DNA from: a virus
Taxonomy: Duplodnaviria > Heunggongvirae > Uroviricota > Caudoviricetes
Virus record (IMG/VR): IMGVR_UViG_2609459791_000001
Span: 1 to 15,845 of that record
Reading direction: 5' to 3' (one strand)
Length of the DNA: 15,845 bases
Shown here one piece after another: positions 1-15,845 of the stretch. The position numbers were made by a program, and so were the translations under genes. A model generated the notes under the pieces. That model made no database searches. It was not told where the DNA came from and saw only the letters and a program-made list of their open reading frames with translations. How positions within the stretch are numbered: position 1 is the first letter of the stretch; the number at the start of each line of letters is the position of its first letter.

Positions 1-72
1 AATTCGTTGTCAGGATAAGGACAATCAATAAAGGACTTCTGTATGAGTCATACAGAAAGAACAGGATTTTAA

Positions 73-1506
73 ATGAATAAGAAATCGTTATGGAAGCTAA
101 TTCTGATATTAGCGATCCCATGTATTATTGGTTTTATGCCAGCTCCGGCAGGATTAAGCGAACTGGCGTGGGTGCTTTTTGGTATTTACCTGGCGGCCAT
201 TGTGGGGCTGGTTATCAAGCCTTTCCCGGAACCTGTCGTACTGTTAATTGCCGTTGCTGCCTCAATGGTGGTGGTCGGTAACTTATCCGACGGTGCGTTT
301 AAAACCACCGCCGTATTAAGCGGTTACTCTTCAGGTACCACCTGGCTGGTGTTCTCGGCGTTTACCTTAAGCGCCGCATTTGTGACCACCGGTTTAGGTA
401 AACGTATTGCCTATCTGCTGATTGGTAAAATCGGTAACACCACGCTGGGTCTGGGTTACGTTACGGTATTCCTCGATCTGGTACTGGCTCCGGCAACACC
501 GTCTAACACCGCGCGTGCGGGCGGCATTGTGTTACCGATCATCAACAGCGTGGCGGTGGCTTTGGGGTCCGAACCGGAAAAAAGTCCGCGTCGTGTCGGA
601 CATTACCTGATGATGTCCATTTACATGGTCACCAAAACCACCAGCTATATGTTCTTTACCGCAATGGCGGGGAACATTCTGGCGCTGAAAATGATCAACG
701 ACATTCTGCACCTGCAAATTAGCTGGGGTGGATGGGCGCTGGCAGCCGGATTGCCGGGCATCATTATGCTGCTGGTCACCCCGCTGGTGATTTACACCAT
801 GTATCCACCAGAAATTAAGAAGGTGGATAACAAAACCATCGCTAAAGCGGGCCTTGCCGAACTAGGACCGATGAAAATCCGCGAAAAAATGCTGCTCGGT
901 GTCTTTGTGCTGGCGCTGCTGGGCTGGATTTTCAGTAAGTCTCTGGGGGTTGATGAATCCACCGTGGCAATCGTTGTTATGGCAACCATGCTGCTGCTGG
1001 GTATCGTTACCTGGGAAGACGTGGTTAAAAATAAAGGCGGCTGGAATACCTTAATCTGGTACGGCGGTATTATCGGCTTAAGCTCCTTATTATCGAAAGT
1101 TAAATTCTTCGAATGGTTAGCTGAAGTCTTTAAAAATAACCTGGCATTTGATGGTCACGGTAACGTTGCTTTCTTCGTTATTATTTTCCTCAGCATTATC
1201 GTGCGTTATTTCTTCGCTTCCGGTAGTGCCTATATCGTTGCTATGTTACCGGTATTTGCCATGCTGGCGAACGTCTCCGGCGCACCGTTAATGTTAACCG
1301 CGCTGGCACTGTTGTTCTCCAACTCCTATGGCGGCATGGTTACTCACTATGGCGGCGCGGCAGGTCCGGTCATCTTTGGCGTGGGTTATAACGATATTAA
1401 ATCCTGGTGGTTGGTCGGTGCGGTACTGACGATATTAACCTTCCTGGTGCATATCACCCTCGGCGTGTGGTGGTGGAATATGCTGATCGGCTGGAACATG
1501 CTGTAA
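73..1506 (+). CDS. ybhI: Putative inner-membrane anion/carboxylate transporter (DASS-like permease)
   Basis: 477-aa ORF, hydrophobic throughout with many predicted TM segments; position immediately upstream of an aconitase-family gene and ybhC matches the E. coli ybhI-ybhJ-ybhC arrangement next to att-lambda. Confidence 0.85.
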   Translation: MNKKSLWKLILILAIPCIIGFMPAPAGLSELAWVLFGIYLAAIVGLVIKPFPEPVVLLIAVAASMVVVGNLSDGAFKTTAVLSGYSSGTTWLVFSAFTLSAAFVTTGLGKRIAYLLIGKIGNTTLGLGYVTVFLDLVLAPATPSNTARAGGIVLPIINSVAVALGSEPEKSPRRVGHYLMMSIYMVTKTTSYMFFTAMAGNILALKMINDILHLQISWGGWALAAGLPGIIMLLVTPLVIYTMYPPEIKKVDNKTIAKAGLAELGPMKIREKMLLGVFVLALLGWIFSKSLGVDESTVAIVVMATMLLLGIVTWEDVVKNKGGWNTLIWYGGIIGLSSLLSKVKFFEWLAEVFKNNLAFDGHGNVAFFVIIFLSIIVRYFFASGSAYIVAMLPVFAMLANVSGAPLMLTALALLFSNSYGGMVTHYGGAAGPVIFGVGYNDIKSWWLVGAVLTILTFLVHITLGVWWWNMLIGWNML

Positions 1507-1514
1507 ATATACTC

Positions 1515-1628
1515 GTCATACTTCAAGTTGCATGTGCTGCGTTTGCGTTCGCTCACCCCAGTCACTTACTTATGTAAGCTCCTGGGGATTCACTCACTTG
1601 TCGCCTTCCTGCAACTCGAATTATTTAG
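1515..1628. repeat. ERIC (enterobacterial repetitive intergenic consensus) element in the ybhI-ybhJ spacer
   Basis: Contains cgctcaccccagtcacttactt and atgtaagctcctggggattcac, which I recognise as the two halves of the ERIC core (the ERIC2 / ERIC1R primer sequences) in inverted arrangement; flanked by inverted repeat caagttgca / tgcaactcg. Boundaries approximate. Confidence 0.75.
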
Positions 1629-1688
1629 AGTATATCCATTTATTATCTTTCTGCGCACTTCACGGTGCGCAGATATCTGGAGCATTTG

Positions 1689-3950
1689 ATGATCAAGTTA
1701 TCTGAAAAAGGCATGTTTCTCGCCAGTAATAACGAAATAATTGCCGAAGAACATTTCACCGGCGAAATTAAAAAAGAAGAAGCCAAAAAAGGCACTATTG
1801 CCTGGTCTATTCTCTCTTCTCATAATACGTCCGGAAATATGGATAAACTTAAAATTAAGTTTGATTCATTAGCCTCTCACGATATTACCTTTGTTGGTAT
1901 TGTACAGACCGCTAAAGCGTCCGGAATGGAACGTTTCCCGCTGCCGTATGTGCTGACCAACTGCCATAACTCACTCTGCGCCGTCGGCGGCACCATTAAC
2001 GGTGATGACCATGTTTTTGGTTTATCGGCAGCTCAGCGTTATGGCGGTATTTTTGTGCCTCCGCATATTGCGGTCATCCATCAATATATGCGTGAGATGA
2101 TGGCAGGCGGCGGCAAAATGATCCTCGGGTCAGACAGCCACACCCGTTACGGTGCATTAGGGACAATGGCAGTCGGTGAGGGCGGCGGTGAGTTGGTAAA
2201 ACAGCTGCTTAATGACACCTGGGATATCGACTATCCGGGAGTTGTTGCGGTGCATCTGACCGGAAAACCAGCGCCGTATGTGGGGCCGCAGGATGTGGCG
2301 CTGGCTATCATCGGTGCCGTGTTCAAAAACGGCTACGTCAAAAACAAAGTGATGGAATTCGTAGGTCCCGGTGTTGCTGCGCTCTCTACCGATTTCCGTA
2401 ACAGCGTTGACGTTATGACCACTGAAACGACCTGTTTAAGTTCTGTCTGGCAAACCGATGAAGAAGTCCATAACTGGCTGGCGCTGCACGGTCGCGGCCA
2501 GGATTACTGCCAGCTTAACCCTCAACCGATGGCGTACTACGATGGCTGCATCAGCGTTGATTTAAGCGCCATCAAACCAATGATTGCGCTGCCGTTCCAC
2601 CCGAGCAACGTGTATGAAATCGACACACTGAACCAGAACCTGACCGACATTCTGCGTGAGATTGAAATTGAGTCCGAACGCGTGGCGCACGGTAAAGCCA
2701 AACTCTCGCTGCTGGATAAAGTGGAAAATGGTCGCCTGAAAGTGCAGCAGGGGATTATCGCGGGCTGTTCTGGCGGTAACTACGAAAACGTCATCGCGGC
2801 GGCGAATGCACTGCGCGGTCAATCCTGTGGCAATGACACCTTCTCGCTGGCAGTTTACCCGTCATCACAGCCGGTGTTTATGGATCTCGCCAAAAAAGGT
2901 GTGGTAGCAGATTTGATTGGCGCAGGCGCAATCATCAGAACCGCGTTCTGCGGCCCATGCTTTGGCGCGGGCGATACGCCAATCAACAACGGATTAAGTA
3001 TTCGCCACACCACGCGCAACTTCCCGAACCGCGAAGGCTCTAAGCCAGCTAATGGGCAGATGTCAGCGGTGGCGTTGATGGACGCTCGTTCTATCGCTGC
3101 GACTGCGGCAAACGGTGGCTATTTAACCTCTGCCAGCGAACTTGATTGCTGGGACAACGTGCCGGAGTACGCCTTCGATGTAACGCCGTATAAAAACCGT
3201 GTTTATCAGGGCTTTGTGAAAGGGGCAACTCAGCAACCGCTGATTTACGGACCGAACATTAAAGACTGGCCGGAATTGGGTGCGCTGACTGACAATATCG
3301 TCCTGAAAGTGTGCTCGAAGATCCTCGACGAAGTGACCACCACCGACGAACTGATTCCTTCCGGTGAAACCTCTTCTTATCGTTCAAATCCGATTGGTCT
3401 GGCGGAGTTTACCCTGTCACGCCGCGATCCCGGTTATGTTGGCAGAAGTAAAGCGACTGCTGAGCTGGAAAATCAGCGTCTGGCGGGGAATGTCAGCGAG
3501 CTGACAGAGGTGTTTGCGCGCATTAAGCAGATTGCTGGTCAGGAGCATATTGATCCGCTGCAAACTGAAATTGGCAGCATGGTATATGCGGTGAAACCAG
3601 GCGATGGTTCTGCGCGTGAACAGGCGGCGAGCTGCCAGCGTGTGATTGGCGGTCTGGCGAATATTGCCGAAGAGTACGCGACTAAACGCTACCGTTCTAA
3701 CGTCATCAACTGGGGGATGTTACCGCTGCAGATGGCGGAAGTGCCAACCTTTGAAGTGGGGGATTACATTTACATCCCTGGCATTAAAGCGGCGCTGGAT
3801 AATCCGGGTACGACGTTTAAAGGTTATGTGATCCATGAAGATGCGCCGGTAACGGAAATTACGCTCTATATGGAAAGTCTGACTGCTGAAGAGCGCGAGA
3901 TTATCAAGGCGGGTAGTTTGATTAACTTCAATAAAAACCGTCAGATGTAA
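1689..3950 (+). CDS. ybhJ: Aconitase-family hydratase/dehydratase (putative)
   Basis: ORF in track begins at 1665, but ATG at 1689 is preceded by GGAG (1679-1682) and gives 753 aa; contains aconitase-like motifs GSDSHT and CGPCFGAG. Confidence 0.88.
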
Positions 3951-3965
3951 AAAGCGCCATGTGAA

Positions 3966-4172
<207 letters not shown>

Positions 4173-4183
4173 GTTAATTGCTC

Positions 4184-5467
4184 TTACTTCTTCGCCTCTG
4201 CAACCACTTTACTACCCACGCCGCGGTTATTGTATTCCCACATGCGGTTGTAGTTAGTGTCATTCAGATTGCGCTGTATTTCGTCGTTATCATCTACGCT
4301 GCCGGTATTACCCGCAAACGGACGATTAGAGATCACCGCATCGGCCCACGGTTTAGCCGTGTTAAAACCTTCGTTGATGGCGCTATCACGGATCACCACC
4401 TGACCGTTGGTATTGGCATCAACATCCAGCGAGCGGCCCAGTTGCGCCACACCATCACCGAAAGCATTGAAACGGCTGTTTACGGCGAGGAAACCGTAGT
4501 AAATGTTGGACAGCGTAGCCGGTGCAAACACATACGCTTCTTGCTGAGTACGTGAGTTCACCACGCGGAATTCGGTGTTATCGAACACCACTGCGCCGCG
4601 ACCAGAAACGATATCCACATCCCCTTCAATGTAGCTGTTGGTCACCAGCGTACGCGGCTGACGATTCGTTTCCAGACGGTTCTGCACACCGCTGTTGGTG
4701 ACAAAGAAGGTGTTCTGACGACCGAGAATGTTAACGTTGTTAATCTGTACCTGGTCACCATCAGTACGCAGTGCCACCGCCGGATGGTTACCTACATCTA
4801 CGCTATCGCCCAGCGTGTTTTCGATGGTCAGATTTTGCAGTTGCAGGCCATTGTTTTGTGACCAGAAGACCGCAGAGCAGAGAACACCGATACTGTCGCT
4901 GCGTTTGCTCTGGCAGCTATCGTACATATACCACGCTGGTTTACCTGGCATATATTTGCCGCGCGGGTTGACGTCGTGACGCCAGTCGGCAGGGCTCATG
5001 CCACCATCAAGGGAAAGCCCAATCTTCACATCAATCGGTTTTTCACCTGTACCGTACAGAGTAATTCCACCCGGAGCGGCAGGGACATATACCGTTCCCT
5101 GATACTCACCAGGCATCACGGCAATATACTGGCGCTTGTTGGTACGCTTGATAATTGCCGCATCTACCGCCGCCTGAATCGTGGTATGCGTTACACCTTG
5201 AGTGCCCGCCGGGCCGACAACAAAGTCAGGTTGCGCAGGCAGGGTAATCGGGGAAGGATTCCACGCTGCAGCACCTGGTGTCAGGGATGCAAAATAGTGT
5301 TGAGCATCGAAATTCTGCGCTTCTTTTGCCGACAGAATCGGGCGAGAAGAGGTACCAGGCGCGGTTTGATCAGAAGGACGTTGATCGGGCGGAGTTGAGC
5401 TACAGGCGGTCAGCGTCACGCCAAAAGCCAATGCCAGCGCCAGACGGGAAACTGAAAATGTGTTCAC
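4184..5467 (-). CDS. ybhC: Outer-membrane lipoprotein, pectin-methylesterase-like family
   Basis: 427-aa ORF; GTG start at 5467 with GGAG upstream; N-terminal signal peptide with lipobox LTAC; pectinesterase-like segments (AVALRTDGDQ, GDVDIVSGRGAVVFDNTEF); last chromosomal gene before the att core. Confidence 0.85.
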   Translation of the reverse strand: MNTFSVSRLALALAFGVTLTACSSTPPDQRPSDQTAPGTSSRPILSAKEAQNFDAQHYFASLTPGAAAWNPSPITLPAQPDFVVGPAGTQGVTHTTIQAAVDAAIIKRTNKRQYIAVMPGEYQGTVYVPAAPGGITLYGTGEKPIDVKIGLSLDGGMSPADWRHDVNPRGKYMPGKPAWYMYDSCQSKRSDSIGVLCSAVFWSQNNGLQLQNLTIENTLGDSVDVGNHPAVALRTDGDQVQINNVNILGRQNTFFVTNSGVQNRLETNRQPRTLVTNSYIEGDVDIVSGRGAVVFDNTEFRVVNSRTQQEAYVFAPATLSNIYYGFLAVNSRFNAFGDGVAQLGRSLDVDANTNGQVVIRDSAINEGFNTAKPWADAVISNRPFAGNTGSVDDNDEIQRNLNDTNYNRMWEYNNRGVGSKVVAEAKK

Positions 5468-5499
5468 AGGTTGCTCCGGGCTATGAAATAGAAAAATGA

Positions 5500-5601
5500 A
5501 TCCGTTGAAGCCTGCTTTTTTATACTAAGTTGGCATTATAAAAAAGCATTGCTTATCAATTTGTTGCAACGAACAGGTCACTATCAGTCAAAATAAAATC
5601 A
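5500..5601. other. attL: attL (B-O-P') of a lambda-type integrase; 15-bp core GCTTTTTTATACTAA at 5514-5528 followed by the P' arm
   Basis: Exact lambda att core sequence; sequence to the right (gttggcattataaaaaagcattgcttatcaatttgttgcaacgaacaggtcactatcagtcaaaataaaatcattatttgatttc) matches what I remember of the lambda P' arm with arm-type Int sites; int gene immediately adjacent. Confidence 0.9.
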
Positions 5602-6672
5602 TTATTTGATTTCAATTTTGTCCCACTCCCTGCCTCTGTCATCACGATACTGTGATGCCATGGTGTCCGACTTATGCCCGAGAAGATGTTGAGCAAACTT
5701 ATCGCTTATCTGCTTCTCATAGAGTCTTGCAGACAAACTGCGCAACTCGTGAAAGGTAGGCGGATCCCCTTCGAAGGAAAGACCTGATGCTTTTCGTGCG
5801 CGCATAAAATACCTTGATACTGTGCCGGATGAAAGCGGTTCGCGACGAGTAGATGCAATTATGGTTTCTCCGCCAAGAATCTCTTTGCATTTATCAAGTG
5901 TTTCCTTCATTGATATTCCGAGGGCATCAACATGCAATGCTGTTGGGATGGCAATTTTTACGCCTGTTTTGCTTTGCTCGACATAAAGATATCCATCTAC
6001 GATATCAGACCACTTCATTTCGCATAAATCACCAACTCGTTGCCCGGTAACAACAGCCAGTTCCATTGCAAGTCTGAGCCAATATGGTGATGATTCTGCT
6101 GCTTGATAAATTTTCAGGTATTCGTCAGCCGTAAGTCTTGATCTCCTTACCTCTGATTTTGCTGCGCGAGTGGCAGCGACAGGGTTTGTTGTTATATGGC
6201 CTTCAGCTATTGCCTCTCGGAATGCATCGCTCAGTGTTGATCTGATTAACTTGGCTGACGCCGCCTTGCCCTCGTCTATGTATCCATTGAGCATTGCCGC
6301 AATTTCTTTTGTGGTGATGTCTTCAAGTGGAGCATCAGGCAGACCCCTCCTTATTGCTTTAATTTTGCTCATGTAATTTATGAGTGTCTTCTGCTTGATT
6401 CCTCTGCTGGCCAGGATTTTTTCGTAGCGATCAAGCCATGAATGTAACGTAACGGAATTATCACTGTTGATTCTCGCTGTCAGAGGCTTGTGTTTGTGTC
6501 CTGAAAATAACTCAATGTTGGCCTGTATAGCTTCAGTGATTGCGATTCGCCTGTCTCGGCCTAATCCAAACTCTTTACCCGTCCTTGGGTCCCTGTAGCA
6601 GTAATATCCATTGTTTCTTATATAAAGGTTAGGGGGTAAATCCCGGCGCTCATGACTTCGCCTTCTTCCCAT
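5602..6672 (-). CDS. int: Tyrosine integrase, lambda Int type
   Basis: 356-aa ORF; translation (MGRRRSHERRDLPPNLYIRNNGYYCYRDPRTGKEFGLG..., C-terminal ...HELRSLSARLYEKQ...LLGHKSDTMASQYRDDRGREWDKIEIK) matches lambda Int as I remember it, including the catalytic-domain HxxR and Tyr region; adjacent to att. Confidence 0.95.
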   Translation of the reverse strand: MGRRRSHERRDLPPNLYIRNNGYYCYRDPRTGKEFGLGRDRRIAITEAIQANIELFSGHKHKPLTARINSDNSVTLHSWLDRYEKILASRGIKQKTLINYMSKIKAIRRGLPDAPLEDITTKEIAAMLNGYIDEGKAASAKLIRSTLSDAFREAIAEGHITTNPVAATRAAKSEVRRSRLTADEYLKIYQAAESSPYWLRLAMELAVVTGQRVGDLCEMKWSDIVDGYLYVEQSKTGVKIAIPTALHVDALGISMKETLDKCKEILGGETIIASTRREPLSSGTVSRYFMRARKASGLSFEGDPPTFHELRSLSARLYEKQISDKFAQHLLGHKSDTMASQYRDDRGREWDKIEIK

Positions 6673-10302: not shown

Positions 10303-11385
10303 TTAGAACTGGTAAACCATACCTACAGCAACGATATCATCGGTAGCAACGCCAGATGCTTTCGTGAAATCGCTCTTATCAATCAGGTTGATTTTGTAGT
10401 CAACAAAAGTGGACATATTTTTGTTGAAGTAATAGGTTGCACCTACATCAACATATTCAACCAGGTCCTGATCACCCCAAACACCCAAGTCTTTTCCTTT
10501 AGAATGCAGGTAAGCAACGGATGGACGCAGGCCGAAGTCGAACTGATATTGTGCAACAGCTTCGAAGTTTTGTGCTTTGTTGGCAATATGGTTATTACCA
10601 AAAACAGTCATGTTCTGGGTTTCAGAATAGGTGGTGGCCAGATAGATGTTGTTCGCATCATATTTCAGACCAGCTGCCCATACTTCAGCATTTTGACCAG
10701 AAGCATTCAGACCGTTGTTACCGTAGATAACCTGATTATTAGTGCGATCAGATTTAGCATAGGTTGCACCCACGCCGAATCCTTCATACTCATAAGTAGT
10801 TGAGAAACCGAAACCATCGCCATTAGCTTCAGTTACTTCATTTCGGTCATTTTTGCCCTGATACTGAGCTGCAAAGTTCAGGCCATCAACCAGACCAAAG
10901 AAGTCGTTGTTACGATAAGTTGCAACACCTGTGGTGCGACCAGTCATGAATACATCTGTTTGGGTCCAGGTATCGCCACCGAATTCTGGCAGAACGTCAG
11001 TCCACGCACCGATGTCGTATGCTACACCGTAGTTACGGCCGTAATCGATTGAGCCGTAGTCACCGAATTTCAGGCCTGCAAATGCAAGACGGGTTTTGTC
11101 TTTGGAGGAACCTTGAGATTCAGCGCGGTTGCCTTTGAATTCATATTCCCACTGACCGAAACCAGTCAGTTGATCGTTGATTTGGGTTTCACCTTTGAAG
11201 CCAAGACGGGCATAAGTAGTATCACCATCATCTGCATCATTAGAGGAGAAGTAGTGCTTAGCATTAACTTTCCCGTACAGATCCAGCTTGTTACTGTCTT
11301 TATTATAAATTTCAGCTGCCTGAGCAGACATCGCCATCAGTACTGATGCAGCTACAGCAGAAATTGCCACTGTTAATTTTTTCAT
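10303..11385 (-). CDS. nmpC: Phage-encoded outer-membrane porin, OmpC/OmpF family (Lc / NmpC-like), apparently intact
   Basis: 360-aa ORF with signal peptide [23 protein letters not shown], porin-typical N-terminal AEIYNKD...KLDLYGK and C-terminal ...VAVGMVYQF ending in aromatic residue; located between Q and the lysis genes as in PA-2 and DLP12. Confidence 0.9.
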
Positions 11386-11974
11386 CGTGAGCCCTTTTTT
11401 TTGAACTATTATTAAAAAATGATGTCACTGCGCGATAAATATTCATCTAATCAATGTGATTATTTCAAGATGTAAGTTTTAGTTTCTCGTTTAATTTGTG
11501 AAGTAGATCTCTATTTTTATCTGAACTTTTTTCTATCGAATCCTATTCATGGCTCTTGGCTGAATAAAAATAAATCTATTAGCCAATTTATATTAATGGC
11601 TGTTATTTATAAGTGCTCTATAATTTGAAGGTTCAATTTAAATTGGCTAAAAATAACGCTGGAAATTATTTATTGGTTATTTGTTAAGATTTTCTTATGT
11701 ATTTGTGGTGGAGTTTTGAACACTCGGTAGCATTCTCATAAATATCATTCAGTGGTTTACGTACGTAAAAAATTGGTTATGCTGTTAAGAGTGGTTACTT
11801 CGTCACACAGCTTAAACCCGCCGTCGAGCTGGTTTTTCCATTTTTTGAGTCTCGATATTAGCTGATAACTCAATACCTGAGTTATTCACTGACTCCGAGT
11901 CTGTTACGTTTCTGCTTTTTTGCGATACGTTGTATTCCCTCAATTTACACCCGCTTTGTCTGCGAGGTGGGGTT
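11386..11974. promoter_or_regulatory. AT-rich 590-bp intergenic region: porin promoter/regulatory region and leader of lysis operon
   Basis: Long strongly AT-rich spacer directly upstream of the minus-strand porin start, with no ORF of 60 aa or more in the track; individual promoter elements not resolved. Confidence 0.3.
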
Positions 11975-12190: not shown

Positions 12191-12687
12191 TGCCTCCATC
12201 ATTACGAAAAGCCGTTGCTGCTGCTATTGGTGGCGGAGCAATTGCTATAGCATCAGTGTTAATTACTGGCCCAAGTGGTAACGATGGTCTGGAAGGTGTC
12301 AGCTACATACCATACAAAGATATTGTTGGTGTATGGACTGTATGTCACGGGCATACAGGAAAAGACATCATGCTCGGTAAAACGTATACCAAAGCAGAAT
12401 GCAAAGCCCTCCTGAATAAAGACCTTGCCACGGTCGCCAGACAAATTAACCCGTACATCAAAGTCGATATACCGGAAACAATGCGCGGCGCTCTTTACTC
12501 ATTCGTTTACAACGTGGGTGCTGGCAATTTCAGAACATCGACGCTTCTTCGCAAAATAAACCAGGGCGATATCAAAGGCGCATGTGATCAGCTACGTCGC
12601 TGGACATATGCTGGCGGTAAGCAATGGAAAGGGCTGATGACTCGCCGTGAGATTGAGCGTGAAGTCTGTTTGTGGGGGCAGCAATGA
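12190..12687 (+). CDS. R: SAR endolysin (lysozyme, T4-lysozyme-like fold) R21/RrrD type
   Basis: 165 aa; start ATG overlaps holin stop (TAATG); N-terminal Gly/Ala-rich weakly hydrophobic SAR segment [20 protein letters not shown] followed by lysozyme domain. Confidence 0.9.
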
Positions 12688-13151
12688 GCAGAGTAACTGC
12701 GATTATCTCCGCTCTGGTTATCTGCATCATCGTCTGCCTGTCATGGGCTGTTAATCATTACCGTGATAACGCCATTACCTACAAAGCCCAGCGCGACAAA
12801 AATGTCAGAGAACTGAAGCTGGCGAACGCGGCAATTACTGACATGCAGATGCGTCAGCGTGATGTTGCTGCGCTCGATGCAAAATACACGAAGGAGTTAG
12901 CTGATGCGAAAGCTGAAAATGATGCTCTTCTGCGGAAGCTTGATAATGGTGGCAGGGTGCTCGTCAAAGGAAAATGCCCTGTGCCATCCTCTGCCGAAAC
13001 CTCCAGCGCCTCCGGCATGGGCAATGATGCCACCGTCGAACTCTCTCCAGTTGCTGGACGAAACGTTCTCGATATCCGGGACGGAATTATCCGCGACCAA
13101 ACAGCACTGAGAACGCTTCAGGAATACATTAGGACGCAATGCCTTCGATGA
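12684..13151 (+). CDS. Rz: i-spanin Rz
   Basis: ATG at 12684 overlaps R stop (ATGA); N-terminal TM segment then coiled-coil-like charged region; contains embedded +1-frame lipoprotein gene. Confidence 0.8.
12904..13110 (+). CDS. Rz1: o-spanin Rz1 (outer-membrane lipoprotein), embedded in Rz in the +1 frame
   Basis: 68-aa [26 protein letters not shown]... with lipobox MVAGC and proline-rich mature region ([16 protein letters not shown]), wholly inside Rz. Confidence 0.7.
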
Positions 13152-13350: not shown

Positions 13351-13493
13351 TATCTGAATTTCACAGCGCATCTCACGCGCATATTAACGAGAGCCTTTCA
13401 GTAAGCGAGCCTGAGAAATGCCGTTATAGGTGGCGACCTCTCTCGGGCGGCTTTTCTGTGAGACAGGCTCACTTTCTAAAAGGTAAAGACGCT

Positions 13494-14018
13494 ATGAATA
13501 ATCATTCAGTTATTCCAGCCTTCGACTTCCGAGAAATGGTGCAAGCCAAAAACGGAGAGGTCGTTACCACATCCAGAAAAATTGCCAAGTACTTCGGCAA
13601 GCGACACGGTGATGTTCTCAGGAAAATCGAGCAGGTTAAGGCTGATTGCTCGCGTGAGTTTAGCCAACGCAATTTTGCGTCGGCTGATTATATCGATGAG
13701 CAGGGCAAGGTTCGCCCGATGTACAGCCTGACGAAAGATGGCTGGATCATGGTTGTGATGGGGTTCACCGGGAAAGCTGCTGCGGCAATCAAGGAGAGCT
13801 ATATCGCAGCATTCAACTGGATGGCAGAACAACTGAGCCGCCGCATGGCAATTGGCGAAGAAATGCAGCACCGCTACGCCATCAAAGAAACACGCTCAAA
13901 GCTGAAAGGTACGATCGGCAGTCGGTTAATGAACGAACGGAAGAAAGAGAAGCGTGTCCTGGCTGTCGAGCATGAATACATCTTGCAGGTGACACAGCCT
14001 GAACTGCTGATTAATTGA
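13494..14018 (+). CDS. rha: Rha-family phage regulatory protein (174 aa)
   Basis: ATG at 13494 preceded by AAGGTAAAG; N-terminal region VTTSRKIAKYFGKRHGDVLRKIE is the characteristic Rha-domain motif; the longer TTG-initiated frame from 13251 is rejected as a 5' extension. Confidence 0.7.
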   Translation: MNNHSVIPAFDFREMVQAKNGEVVTTSRKIAKYFGKRHGDVLRKIEQVKADCSREFSQRNFASADYIDEQGKVRPMYSLTKDGWIMVVMGFTGKAAAAIKESYIAAFNWMAEQLSRRMAIGEEMQHRYAIKETRSKLKGTIGSRLMNERKKEKRVLAVEHEYILQVTQPELLIN

Positions 14019-14320
14019 AGATGTCATTACAAAGCCTATCTACGGGGGGCTTGATAATGGCTTATACCCTGCACGGGATAACTTAACTGATATCCCTTTT
14101 AACGGATAAAGGTATTCAAGCCTGACACATCATGCGCTGTATCGTCGCCGTATTCCCGCATTAACCATGACCGTAGCCTGACGGGGAATTCCTTCTGCGT
14201 GAGTGTGCGGGAATAATCAAAAACGATGCACACCGGGTTATTAACGCGTCAACTGAACGCGGGGTTGCTCTTCATGTCAGCCAGTCCGGTGCAGGGGTAG
14301 AAGAAACCGGACGTTATGGT

Positions 14321-14731
14321 TTAGTGTGGAAACATTTGTGATGTGCTCTGTATGTTTTCAGTAAAGAGTAATGAATTATCAAAGGTATAGTAATATCTTT
14401 TTTGTTCGTGGATATTTGTAACCCACCGAAAAACTCCTGCTTTAGCAAGGTTTCTTCTGTATTCCTGAAATGTGATCTCTCTGGATTTCAGCTTATTAGA
14501 GGTCGTTTCTATAAGATGCCTATCCTTTGAAAATTTGACAGACACAATGTTTTTTAGGCCCTTTAATAACACTGTATTATCATTTTTTAATACAATATGA
14601 ACATTCTCTGTGGCTAAATAGTAAATGTAATGTGAGACATTGTGACGTTTTAGCTCAGAATAAAACCATTGATAGTTTAAATCGTTTCGAACTTTATCAA
14701 ATATTTGTTTAAAAATGACTACCTGATCCAT
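14321..14731 (-). CDS. DUF1398 / YbcV-like protein (136 aa), AT-rich moron gene
   Basis: Track ORF starts at 14746; second ATG at 14731 follows GGAAGG at good spacing and gives 136 aa; visibly lower G+C than flanking phage DNA; resembles DLP12 YbcV in size, position (between Rz and terminase) and, from memory, sequence. Confidence 0.6.
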
Positions 14732-14790
14732 AGATAAACCTTCCATGTGATATGAGGGGGGGCGTAGTCTGCACGATTATCTAAATTGCT

Positions 14791-15024
14791 TCAATCTGGT
14801 CTGATCTGTTTTCTGAGCAATTCAGTAATGTCACTCTTTTCTTTGTTTGCTTCAGGAGAAACTCTTTTTTCTGAGCACAGTCTCCGGCGGCAGGCTTCAA
14901 TGACCCAGGCTGAGAAATTCCCGGACCCTTTTTGATCAAGAGCGATGTTAATTTGTTCAATCATTTGGTTAGGAAAGCGGATGTTGCGGGTTGTTGTTCT
15001 GCGGGTTCTGTTCTTCGTTGACAT
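14791..15024 (-). CDS. Ribbon-helix-helix (Arc/MetJ/CopG-like) DNA-binding protein, 77 aa
   Basis: Basic N-terminal tail (MSTKNRTRRTTTRNIRFPNQ) followed by RHH-like pattern IRFPNQMIEQINIALDQKGSGNFSAWVIEACRRRL (beta strand, helix A, G-x-S/N turn, helix B); immediately upstream of and co-directional with the DUF1398-like gene. Confidence 0.6.
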   Translation of the reverse strand: MSTKNRTRRTTTRNIRFPNQMIEQINIALDQKGSGNFSAWVIEACRRRLCSEKRVSPEANKEKSDITELLRKQIRPD

Positions 15025-15223
15025 GAGGTTGTCCCGTATTCAGTGTCGCTGATTTGTATTGTCTGAAGTTGTTTTTACGTTAAGTTGATGCAGATCAATT
15101 AATATGATACCTGCGTCATAATTGATTATTTGACGTGGTTTGATGGCGTAGATGCACGTTGTGACATGCAGATGATAATTATTATCATTTTGCGGGTCCT
15201 TTCCGGCGATCCGACAGGTTACG

Positions 15224-15412
15224 GGGCGGCGACCTCGCGGGTTTTCGCTATTTATGAAAATTTTCCGGTTTAAGGCGTTTCCGTTCTTCTTCGTCGTAAC
15301 TTAATGTTTTTATTTAAAATACCCTCTGAAAAGAAAGGAAGCGACAGGTGCTGAAAGCGAGCTTTTTGGCCTCTGTCGTTTCCTTTCTCTGTTTTTGTCC
15401 GTGGAATGAACA
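15224..15412. other. cos: cos site, lambda type: cosN 12-nt cohesive-end sequence GGGCGGCGACCT (15224-15235) followed by cosB (terminase R sites / IHF site)
   Basis: Sequence ccgacaggttacg-GGGCGGCGACCT-cgcgggttttcgctatttatgaaaattttccggtttaaggcgtttccgttcttcttcgt matches the lambda genome ends as I remember them with a few substitutions; Nu1 starts about 190 bp downstream as in lambda. Confidence 0.85.
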
Positions 15413-15845
15413 ATGGAAGTCAACAAAAAGCAGCTGGCTGACATTTTCGGTGCGAGTATCCGTACCATTCAGAACTGGCAGGAACAGGGAATGCCCGTTC
15501 TGCGAGGCGGTGGCAAGGGTAATGAGGTGCTTTATGACTCTGCCGCCGTCATAAAATGGTATGCCGAAAGGGATGCTGAAATTGAGAACGAAAAGCTGCG
15601 CCGGGAAGTTGAAGAACTGCGGCAGGCCAGCGAGACAGATCTCCAGCCAGGGACTATTGAGTACGAACGCCATCGACTTACGCGTGCGCAGGCCGACGCA
15701 CAGGAGCTGAAAAATGCCAGAGACTCCGCTGAAGTGGTGGAAACCGCATTCTGTACTTTCGTGCTGTCGCGGATCGCAGGTGAAATTGCCAGTATTCTCG
15801 ACGGGATCCCCCTGTCGGTGCAGCGGCGTTTTCCGGAACTGGAAA
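15413..15845 (+). CDS. nu1: Terminase small subunit Nu1 (5' part; runs off window end)
   Basis: ATG at 15413; translation MEVNKKQLADIFGASIRTIQNWQEQGMPVLRGGGKGNEVLYDSAAVIKWYAERDAEIENEKLRREVEELRQ... matches lambda Nu1 (winged HTH at N-terminus). Not in ORF track because no stop occurs within the window. Confidence 0.9.
   Translation, partial: MEVNKKQLADIFGASIRTIQNWQEQGMPVLRGGGKGNEVLYDSAAVIKWYAERDAEIENEKLRREVEELRQASETDLQPGTIEYERHRLTRAQADAQELKNARDSAEVVETAFCTFVLSRIAGEIASILDGIPLSVQRRFPELE

Follow-up and report, generated by a model that had tools for sequence, protein, structure and literature searches.

The two adjacent minus-strand genes between the lysis genes and cos of this lambda-related phage are already catalogued genes of lambda-type prophages, ynfO/ydfO (ylcI/ybcV), and neither of them is new. 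In their behavior they are two separable accessory cassettes rather than a toxin-antitoxin pair. We consider it probable, if by no means certain, that they are lambda-family genes of the ynfO/ydfO type that are often neighbors at the right chromosome end and run antisense to late transcription, with the DUF3950 gene encoding a ribbon-helix-helix (RHH) regulator and the DUF1398 gene a moron-like protein activated by PdhR.

Identity and setting of the gene pair

The window, by which we mean the entire 15,845-nucleotide stretch of viral DNA analyzed (IMG/VR record IMGVR_UViG_2609459791_000001), contains both minus-strand open reading frames (ORFs) where the original prediction had placed them. 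The DUF1398 gene, of the ydfO/ybcV type, spans 14321-14731 and encodes 136 aa (Pfam DUF1398); the DUF3950 (YlcI/YnfO) gene spans 14791-15024 and encodes 77 aa (Pfam and NCBIfam). Their location between Rz (12672-13151), on the lysis side of the interval, and cos was likewise recognized correctly. The cohesive-end sequence GGGCGGCGACCT lies on the plus strand at 15224-15235, with the cos nick at 15223/15224, and Nu1, which starts at 15416, is 98.6% identical to lambda Nu1. The interval also holds a Rha-family gene on the plus strand (13491-14018). At the DNA level, the pair has a 100% match to E. coli prophages in which the two genes are annotated as DUF1398 and YlcI/YnfO. The earlier family calls and the assignment to the accessory region between Rz and cos stand; what had been overlooked is the identity with ynfO and ydfO of K-12, the presence in lambda and the structure of YdfO.

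One detail of the gene model has to be corrected. A longer ORF (14321-14746, 141 aa) is available through an alternative upstream ATG at 14746, but the 136-aa start at 14731 is preceded by a Shine-Dalgarno sequence (GGAAGG, 14739-14744), is the start used in RefSeq and is where distant homologs begin. The 136 aa and the 45-bp spacing of the original prediction do not belong together: the gap is 59 nt from the 14731 start, and 44 nt only for the 141-aa version. An apparent ‘fusion’ of the two domains in one protein of 233 aa (P0001) was dismissed as a gene-calling artifact in which the TGA stop is read as Trp.

In the K-12 prophage Qin, ynfO and ydfO (b4533, b1549) are found in the same order as in the window, separated by a gap of 57 nt and at like distances from nohA/Nu1 and from a Fur box; of the 77 YnfO residues, 3 differ, and YdfO is about 97% identical. 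Unlike the window, Qin has decayed as a prophage and is located elsewhere in the chromosome, and a C-tract that is seven residues long in the window has five there. The right end of lambda (lambdap78, lambdap79 and a 64-aa YlcI-like ORF) and the prophage DLP12 (ybcV-ybcW-ylcI) resemble the window in having a DUF1398 homolog (78% aa identity), in its position between lysis genes and cos and in the same Fur box. Their DUF3950 protein is 94.5% identical over the first 55 aa, but its tail of 14 aa is unrelated. They differ further in what separates the two genes, namely about 540 bp together with a plus-strand gene of 68 aa (ybcW/lambdap79), and in that bor takes the place of the Rha gene.

Linkage of DUF3950 and DUF1398

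The pair had been likened to a type II toxin-antitoxin or dedicated regulator-effector module. As a toxin-antitoxin system, the RHH protein would be both antitoxin and autorepressor, and DUF1398 the toxin. This reading is tempting: a small gene for a basic, DNA-binding-like protein comes first and a larger one second, on the same strand and with a short gap, the genes adjoin in most close relatives, and the small protein is weakly similar to HicB-like antitoxins (PHROG). Gene order, sizes and a possible RHH N-terminal domain also recall the systems with RHH antitoxins (ParD/ParE, RelB/RelE, CcdA/CcdB and FitA/FitB). Nevertheless, neither version is supported, because each gene commonly occurs without the other.

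Among phage records, 155 contain DUF3950 and 43 DUF1398; in complete E. coli genomes, we counted 8362 places with DUF3950 versus 3402 with DUF1398, and of 5426 such genomes, 3785 encode the former domain and 2652 the latter. Stx-type phages carry DUF3950 next to HNH-TerS-TerL and without DUF1398, their homology being limited to codons 1 to about 52 of the DUF3950 gene. DUF1398, in turn, stands without DUF3950 in six viral contigs (97–100% identity), as chromosomal ycgX, in Kluyvera and at other Enterobacteriaceae loci, the last of which have neither DUF3950 nor phage genes within 6 kb (tblastn). The chromosomal stand-alone homologs adjoin stress and biofilm regulators. In lambda and DLP12, the opposite-strand ybcW intervenes between the two genes; the ybcW and ylcI transcripts overlap in K-12 (PMC12288877). 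Finally, a single full-length DUF3950 allele accompanies DUF1398 alleles of either 76% or 100% identity. Orphan DUF1398 genes could be served in trans by a DUF3950 copy elsewhere in the genome.

Other features speak against a toxin-antitoxin system as well. In contrast to the RHH-antitoxin systems, the two genes are not obligately linked, they lack a conserved toxin-binding tail as well as a known toxin fold or catalytic residues, and their regulatory signals are separate. Phages with DUF1398 proteins of 76–78% identity have DUF3950 tails, the putative toxin-binding part, that are unrelated in sequence and in length (27 versus 14 aa), and the 59-nt gap has a separate Shine-Dalgarno sequence and regulator box rather than the compact layout of a translationally coupled operon. 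No catalytic-type residues, that is, no acidic, His, Cys or Ser residues, are conserved across DUF1398 homologs. Neither protein matched a toxin family in Pfam, NCBIfam or PADLOC; PADLOC-DB 2.0 returned a chance-level Csx23 match for DUF1398 (E 0.013) and nothing for DUF3950. Furthermore, YdfO was overproduced alone for NMR (2HH8), and ybcV overexpression from an ASKA clone, whose cells were scored on entry into stationary phase, proved compatible with growth up to that point (PMC2853380); both observations would argue against strong toxicity. We regard a toxin-antitoxin function as highly improbable.

The DUF1398 cassette and its product

The homology shared by the window, Qin, DLP12 and lambda starts exactly at a PdhR-box-like sequence, about 72 nt before the ATG of DUF1398. 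In the window, this sequence (AACAGATCAGACCAGAT, 14794-14810, minus strand) lies within the 3′-terminal part of DUF3950 and delimits the mobile DUF1398 cassette on its left; it is one base off the Qin site AAcaGGTcagACCAgaT, with a G-to-A change in one half-site where Qin keeps the consensus G. The Qin site was recovered by genomic SELEX with PdhR, an equivalently placed site lies upstream of ybcV in DLP12, and ybcV mRNA is down 10-fold in a pdhR mutant (PMC7660256). The adjoining leader (14732-14793, minus strand) contains the TGA stop of the DUF3950 gene (14791-14793), a −10-like GATAAT (14776-14781), a run of seven C residues (14756-14762; G on the plus strand) and the Shine-Dalgarno sequence. 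Both the GATAAT and the Shine-Dalgarno sequence are conserved in the window, Qin, DLP12 and lambda; the C-tract varies from 4 to 7 residues among loci with identical flanks. The folding of the leader RNA is not better than that of shuffled sequences (z = −0.10).

A PdhR box about 72 nt before the ATG, at the very start of the cassette, suggests that DUF1398 has its own promoter, and since the GATAAT lies 26 nt downstream of the box center, this host regulator probably acts as an activator. A consensus promoter scan did not flag the candidate promoter.

These signals also bear on a less rigid form of the regulator-effector idea, in which the pair would work as a unit in the window and in Qin, with DUF3950 repressing one leftward transcript that extends over DUF1398 as well, even though the parts can exist alone elsewhere. 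The adjacency of the genes in 79 of 80 and 69 of 75 loci of close relatives, with a constant gap of 57–60 nt, makes co-transcription or functional coupling possible in this arrangement. Consistent with it, our scan found no terminator 3′ of either gene and hence none between them, the junction is flanked by the two arms of a 10-nt inverted repeat (14781-14790 / 14816-14825), and ylcI transcripts continue into the next gene in K-12 (PMC12288877). However, the inverted repeat is missing from lambda and DLP12, DUF1398 retains the 72 nt ahead of it, including the PdhR box and the GATAAT, when it is away from DUF3950, and ybcV, although separated, is still expressed in a PdhR-dependent manner (PMC7660256). 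Moreover, most DUF3950 copies have no adjoining DUF1398, and no motif recurs between the sequences ahead of lambda-type and of Stx-type DUF3950 genes or in the promoter region of DUF1398. A shared operon of this kind is conceivable, but we think it rather unlikely.

The reading we prefer is that of two separable cassettes. As anticipated by the original prediction, the DUF1398 coding sequence is conspicuously AT-rich, with 31.4% G+C (GC3 31%) compared to 46.8% in the window and 44–55% in neighboring genes. Only 1.6% of 411-nt segments are as low as this, and the remaining ones lie upstream of the porin gene. The DUF3950 gene, at 44% G+C, is not unusual, so that a distinct base composition is a property of DUF1398 alone. 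Together with the cassette-like homology that begins about 72 nt upstream of the ATG, this bears out the proposed separate acquisition of DUF1398. The cassette shows the sharp boundary, at the PdhR box, and the presence/absence pattern of a moron, in that phages of the Stx type and a locus disrupted by IS5 do not have it. Like bor and lom of lambda, DUF1398 is a late-region accessory gene, dispensable for plaques and variably present among related phages, with a G+C content off that of the surroundings. Transcription independent of the late operon, known for bor and lom, would be expected for it. What sets bor and lom apart is that their products are envelope proteins that have a signal sequence and a known phenotype.

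The DUF1398 protein matches its Pfam profile (PF07166; searched with the 141-aa ORF) over its full length (positions 1-119 of 119; E 1.7e-46, 157.6 bits with a cut-off of 22). It has the fold of YdfO, a duplicated alpha-alpha-beta-beta-beta unit whose NMR structure (PDB 2HH8) was solved with the soluble protein in solution. A structure-based search retrieved no neighbor among solved or viral predicted structures; DUF1398 is an internally duplicated orphan fold. A phmmer match to parafibromin (E 0.006) was dropped, as the fold search gave no support. The protein is basic (pI 9.6) and, on inspection of its sequence, has no evident signal peptide or membrane segment. With a dN/dS of 0.17–0.25, it is under purifying selection, and the residues conserved across the family are mostly hydrophobic or aromatic, plus R15, T41, N43, R112 and N119.

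The literature search turned up no functional paper on DUF1398, in agreement with the earlier view of the family as uncharacterized. The inherited labels ‘putative envelope protein’ and ‘head protein’ are baseless, and a reported protection against oxidative stress by YdfO overexpression (PMC4077768) goes back to a paper that concerns YfdO, not YdfO (PMC3105296). Knock-down of lambdap78 leaves the efficiency of plating at about 1 (PMC10695390). We imagine DUF1398 as an AT-rich, moron-like cassette, probably with its own promoter, which would be expressed mainly in the lysogen and be dispensable for lytic growth. Its product would be soluble, basic and non-enzymatic, with a binding rather than a catalytic role; its target in the lysogen is presumably a host macromolecule.

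Alternatively, the genes might serve in defense, superinfection exclusion or anti-defense, given that the accessory region between Rz and cos is a known position of lysogenic-conversion genes, such as bor in lambda. The AT-rich, cassette-like nature of DUF1398 is compatible with this, and lambdap79, the ybcW-like gene that is absent from the window, is named in a 2026 preprint whose subject is a bacterial immune NADase domain. Against such a function stand the PADLOC and structure searches described above and the stand-alone chromosomal homologs, which are found among stress and biofilm regulators and not in defense islands. Likewise, the papers found link the genes to phage resistance only through an incidental loss of ydfO in one resistant isolate (PMC8711792). 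We consider a role in defense very unlikely.

DUF3950 and the region towards cos

The 77-aa DUF3950 protein (pI 10.5) is recognized by Pfam (4.9e-21, 74.8 bits, cut-off 25) and by the NCBIfam model YlcI_YnfO_N (35.7 bits, cut-off 30). It combines a basic N-terminal arm and a nearly invariant stretch of 50 aa with a hypervariable tail, 27 aa long in the window. Codons 1-50 are under strong purifying selection (dN/dS 0.06–0.10 at pS 0.5–0.64). The original prediction of an RHH protein is plausible. In its favor, hhalign aligns DUF3950 with Arc in the correct register, at a score that is not significant (E 0.029, probability 1.7%), and with Mnt at E 0.27. Weak PHROG matches point to HicB-like proteins in 12 of 16 members (best 0.003) and to an Arc-like repressor in 6 of 16 (0.073), and a low-confidence, single-sequence structure prediction (pLDDT 55) yields helices at residues 19-31 and 38-49. 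On the other hand, a profile of the 16 DUF3950 proteins retrieved nothing among PDB sequences and no RHH family in Pfam at E values up to 10. A tblastn match to a Pasteurella phage ‘transcriptional repressor’ proved to be due to chance, being on the opposite strand to the annotated gene.

A putative Arc-like RHH core at residues 12 to 50 or so is plausible from these sequence comparisons. With Arc and Mnt of phage P22, DUF3950 shares its size, the basic N-terminal arm and the N-[IL]-R-[FW]-P motif of a putative strand, after which two predicted helices would agree in length with those of the repressors, as would a turn with Gly; it differs in that the similarity is statistically insignificant and in that there is no antirepressor partner in a divergent, immI-like layout. 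We propose that the conserved 50 or so N-terminal residues most likely form an Arc/Mnt-like dimer that would bind DNA, and that DUF3950 is probably a small transcriptional (auto)regulator produced from the prophage. The variable tail is no partner-specific module for DUF1398.

The region between the DUF3950 start and cos (15025-15223) corresponds to the right end of the lambda chromosome, to which it is about 95% identical. It contains a pair of 8-bp inverted repeats (15094-15101 / 15119-15126), and a consensus scan found no minus-strand sigma-70 promoter within it. A palindromic Fur box (ATGATAAT-T-ATTATCAT, 15172-15192) is situated about 35 nt from the cos nick and about 155 nt ahead of the ATG of DUF3950; it agrees with the Fur consensus at 16 of 19 positions (15174-15192, minus strand) and is the single match at three or fewer mismatches, with 0.01 expected. 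It is identical to the ‘nohB’ site of DLP12 (25.3 bits) and retained in 78 of 79 lambda-type loci; its Qin/lambda variant, the ‘nohA’ site, is positive in gel-shift and FURTA assays (PMC2189734). A promoter-like sequence on the plus strand (GTGACA-16-TATCAT, 15161-15188) overlaps the box. A comparison of these lambda-type upstream sequences with their Stx-type counterparts yielded no convincing common operator motif.

This setting raises the question whether DUF3950 belongs to the packaging end, binding near cos or the terminase start and controlling transcription into the region or its use, with DUF1398 as an unrelated passenger. The sole constant neighbor of DUF3950 is indeed the start of the packaging module, always in divergent orientation (Nu1/cos in lambda types, HNH-TerS-TerL in Stx types), and DUF3950 is listed with TerS/TerL in capsid-forming PICIs (PMC13612085). 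In addition, a plus-strand promoter-like site, presumably Fur-controlled, is situated between DUF3950 and cos. Yet, no operator-like motif is common to lambda-type and Stx-type genomes, some phages with a related Nu1-like terminase have no DUF3950 gene, and a position at a module junction may just mark where insertions are tolerated. We deem a packaging-related role unlikely.

A bolder reading seems improbable as well. DUF3950 might be a so far unrecognized repressor of the Arc type and a marker of the junction between lysis and packaging genes, both in lambdoid phages and in capsid-forming PICIs. Together with host Fur and PdhR, whose boxes are found about 155 nt upstream of the gene and at its 3′ end, it would gate leftward transcripts expressed from the prophage, among them that of DUF1398 as a host-modulating protein of new fold. 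If true, the expression of prophage accessory genes would be tied to iron and pyruvate status.

The locus reveals no new kind of system. Nevertheless, DUF3950 and DUF1398 are among the commonest uncharacterized genes of E. coli prophages, and both are present in lambda and in K-12. Their separability guards against a tempting but unsupported annotation as toxin and antitoxin, and it narrows the useful questions to the DNA targets of DUF3950, the control by PdhR and Fur, and the binding partners of DUF1398.

The gene pair and its prophage setting

The original prediction held that a minus-strand pair of genes, for a ribbon-helix-helix (RHH) DNA-binding protein and a DUF1398 protein, lies between the lysis cassette and cos and resembles a type II toxin-antitoxin or regulator-effector module. 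Both ORFs are real: the 77-residue product of 14791-15024 (-) matches Pfam DUF3950 and NCBIfam YlcI_YnfO_N, in both cases over the curated cut-offs, and the ORF at 14321-14746 (-) matches Pfam DUF1398 at 1.7e-46. The biological start of the latter is likely the ATG at 14731, yielding 136 residues, because it is preceded by GGAAGG, is used in RefSeq and is where distant homologues begin; the intergenic gap is therefore 59 nt and not the 45 bp initially proposed. The AT-richness ascribed to the DUF1398 gene holds (31.4% G+C versus 46.8% for the window, within the lowest 1.6% of equal-sized windows), and the DUF3950 gene, with 44% G+C, is ordinary for the window. Both are under purifying selection, with dN/dS values of 0.17-0.25 for the DUF1398 gene and of 0.06-0.10 for codons 1-50 of the DUF3950 gene, the latter at a synonymous divergence of 0.5-0.64.

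The pair is already known, albeit functionally uncharacterised: in Escherichia coli K-12, the Qin prophage carries it as ynfO-ydfO in the same layout as the window and DLP12 carries ylcI and ybcV, the right end of phage lambda encodes both proteins (lambdap78 and a 64-residue ORF about 200 bp from cos), and a structure has been solved (YdfO, PDB 2HH8). Prophages of several E. coli chromosomes match the 1.2-kb segment at 100% identity, with the genes labelled ‘DUF1398 domain-containing protein’ and ‘YlcI/YnfO family protein’. Of 5426 complete E. coli genomes, 3785 contain the DUF3950 domain sequence (8362 places) and 2652 the DUF1398 gene (3402 places). A literature search found no functional paper for DUF1398, DUF3950, ydfO, ybcV, ycgX, ynfO or ylcI. 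The names ‘putative envelope protein’ and ‘head protein’, which propagate for DUF1398 through records of lambda, HK629, DE3 and others as well as PHROG 413, are unsupported by sequence or structure. P0001, a 233-residue ‘fusion’ with both Pfam domains that is equivalent to 14321-15024 and heads a cluster of 761 sequences, is a gene-calling artefact, which reads the DUF3950 TGA stop as Trp and whose DUF1398-leader C-tract is 2 C shorter.

The window represents a lambda-type prophage including its left junction, with the order ybhI/ybhJ/ybhC-type host genes, integrase, NinX, RusA, Q, porin, holin/endolysin/Rz, Rha-family gene, DUF1398/DUF3950 pair, cos (GGGCGGCGACCT, from 15224) and Nu1. The left end up to the integrase (1-6672) contains host genes for a Na/sulfate symporter family protein, an aconitase family protein and a pectinesterase, i.e. 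the ybhI-ybhJ-ybhC neighbourhood, followed by the lambda-type integrase gene (5602-6672, -), which places the prophage at the lambda attachment site. The only Rfam match in the window, the nucleoid-associated naRNA4 (4045-4115, +; 60.7 bits), lies in this host part. Since int and ninX are only about 1.9 kb apart, the prophage seems to lack most of its early region; in HS30-1, the strain that best matches the right part of the window, the early region is complete. A second accessory cassette of the late region is a porin gene (10303-11385, -; Porin_1, 3.6e-152), which lies between Q and the lysis genes; apart from the DUF1398 gene, the window is strongly AT-rich only directly upstream of this porin gene (11159-11590). 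Between Rz and DUF1398, an antirepressor-like Rha-family gene (13491-14018, +) stands in place of bor. The same slot holds a KilA-N gene in Stx-type phages, and AntA/AntB is listed beside YlcI/YnfO in capsid-forming PICIs, a loose, recurrent link between DUF3950 and antirepressor-like genes. While bor itself is absent, 14147-14173 is the degenerate remnant of a promoter that in phage HK629 is annotated ahead of bor; it differs at 7 of 27 positions, and both hexamers are damaged.

Separability of the two genes

In close relatives, the two genes adjoin in 79 of 80 and 69 of 75 loci, but this linkage is not obligate. Stx-converting phages have the order Rz, KilA-N, DUF3950 (opposite strand), HNH, TerS and TerL, and tblastn detected no DUF1398 at these loci; across the phage collection, DUF3950 occurs in 155 records and DUF1398 in only 43. 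Conversely, tblastn detected neither DUF3950 nor phage genes within 6 kb of DUF1398 in any of 24 recovered genome loci (from Kluyvera, Pseudocitrobacter, Salmonella, Raoultella, Escherichia and Shigella). For instance, a 45% identical chromosomal paralogue in E. coli, which by gene order is ycgX, is flanked by bluR and iraM, and a 35% identical Kluyvera homologue by genes for a MASE4-GGDEF protein and a cold-shock-domain protein. Six viral contigs carry DUF1398 genes 97-100% identical to that of the window beside a ybcW-like gene and a different Nu1-like terminase, with no DUF3950 within 4 kb. In lambda and DLP12, about 540 bp and a 68-residue gene on the other strand (lambdap79/ybcW) separate the two genes. 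Furthermore, one DUF3950 allele (at least 97% identity) occurs next to DUF1398 alleles of ~76% as well as ~100% identity, which demonstrates recombination between the genes. In one viral contig (L039, 438-1454), the next gene after DUF3950 is an IS5-type transposase, which takes the place of DUF1398 and some of the lysis region. The lambdap79 gene (3371-3577 of the lambda locus L002), which the window lacks, is scored ‘essential’ by CRISPRi (EOP 3e-4), probably because of polarity on the late transcript; a preprint of 2026 about an NADase domain of bacterial immunity names it six times.

A type II toxin-antitoxin module of DUF3950 and DUF1398 is highly improbable, as every defining feature that could be tested fails: besides the facultative linkage, the operon is not compact, the DUF3950 tail does not co-vary with DUF1398, neither a known toxin fold nor a catalytic residue set is present, and a PADLOC search with the pair gave no match. 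Indirectly, the overproduction of YdfO alone for NMR and the scoring of an ASKA ybcV clone in cells entering stationary phase (PMC2853380) would speak against strong toxicity.

Boundaries and regulatory sites

Each gene has its own module boundaries. Homology of the DUF3950 gene to Stx phages extends from the ATG to about codon 52, with unrelated tail and upstream DNA, and in a 16-member alignment residues 1-50 are nearly invariant while the tails vary in length and sequence. The DUF1398 homology common to the window, Qin, DLP12 and lambda starts precisely at a PdhR box (in the window AACAGATCAGACCAGAT, 14794-14810), some 72 nt before the ATG, and from there spans a conserved GATAAT, the C-tract and a Shine-Dalgarno sequence; about 26 nt separate the box centre from the downstream -10-like hexamer. 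PdhR genomic SELEX sites in DLP12 and Qin correspond to these positions, and ybcV mRNA is 10-fold down in a pdhR mutant (PMC7660256). We infer that the DUF1398 cassette has its own PdhR-activated promoter. A simple consensus scan of the cassette flagged neither promoter nor terminator, and the RNA fold of the leader is not significant. The leader's homopolymer (14756-14762, G7 on the plus and C7 on the minus strand) varies among loci with identical 60-nt flanks (7 C in 3, 6 in 18, 5 in 2 and 4 in 1), which could reflect slippage or sequencing error. At the junction, the PdhR-like box lies between the arms of a 10-nt inverted repeat (14781-14790/14816-14825), which are 90% complementary and spaced by 25 nt; the repeat is found in Qin and absent from lambda and DLP12.

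The 199 bp from the DUF3950 ATG to the cos nick correspond to the right end of lambda. Between this gene and Nu1, about 35 nt from the nick, lies a strong Fur box (palindrome 15172-15188; 16/19 consensus match at 15174-15192; chance expectation 0.01). Of 79 lambda-type loci, 78 retain it, at 153-159 nt before the DUF3950 ATG; phage lambda itself also has it, and Stx-type loci lack it. The box of the window is identical to the ‘nohB’ site of DLP12, the third strongest predicted Fur cluster of the K-12 genome, and equivalent to the Qin/lambda ‘nohA’ version, which is gel-shifted by Fur and FURTA-positive (PMC2189734). From our reading of the dates, the nohA assignment predates the annotation of ynfO. 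The box overlaps a plus-strand promoter-like site directed into Nu1, and it may control a promoter reading either rightward into Nu1 or leftward into DUF3950.

The adjacency of the genes, with no terminator between them, is compatible with a looser reading, in which DUF3950 in the window's arrangement also regulates a transcript reading into DUF1398; we consider this tenable but less likely.

The gene products

The DUF3950 protein is very basic (pI 10.5) and has an Arg/Thr-rich arm, an N-I-R-F-P motif and predicted helices 19-31 and 38-49 with KGSGN in between. With hhalign, this region aligns in the right register with the N-L-R-W-P strand and helix A of Arc (sequence checked against 1ARQ/1ARR), and family members repeatedly give weak matches to HicB-like and Arc-like repressor families in PHROG; the alignment itself is not significant (E 0.029), so the RHH assignment is reasonable but unproven. 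ACCCGCA (minus strand) occurs at 14985-14992 and 15000-15007, within the codons of the arm, and again at about 15197-15204 beside the Fur box; the recurrence may be a coincidence of repeated Thr-Arg codons.

Within phmmer range, DUF1398 is confined to Enterobacteriaceae (196 clusters among 1.84 billion representatives). Residues conserved in distant members are hydrophobic or aromatic, together with R15, T41, N43, R112 and N119, and none of them is part of a typical catalytic set. Lambda plates no less efficiently when lambdap78 is knocked down (PMC10695390). For the ionic liquid [C2mim]Cl, more than 100-fold induction of ydfO is reported in exponential-phase cells (PMC4077768). A reported rise in oxidative-stress resistance upon YdfO overexpression (PMC4077768, citing PMC3105296) stems from confusion with YfdO of prophage CPS-53.

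Overall, the original observation is confirmed and its interpretation partly supported. On the best account, the two genes are independent accessory cassettes: DUF3950 as a putative small Arc-like DNA-binding regulator, and DUF1398 as an AT-rich, probably PdhR-controlled moron whose product would be a non-enzymatic binding protein.
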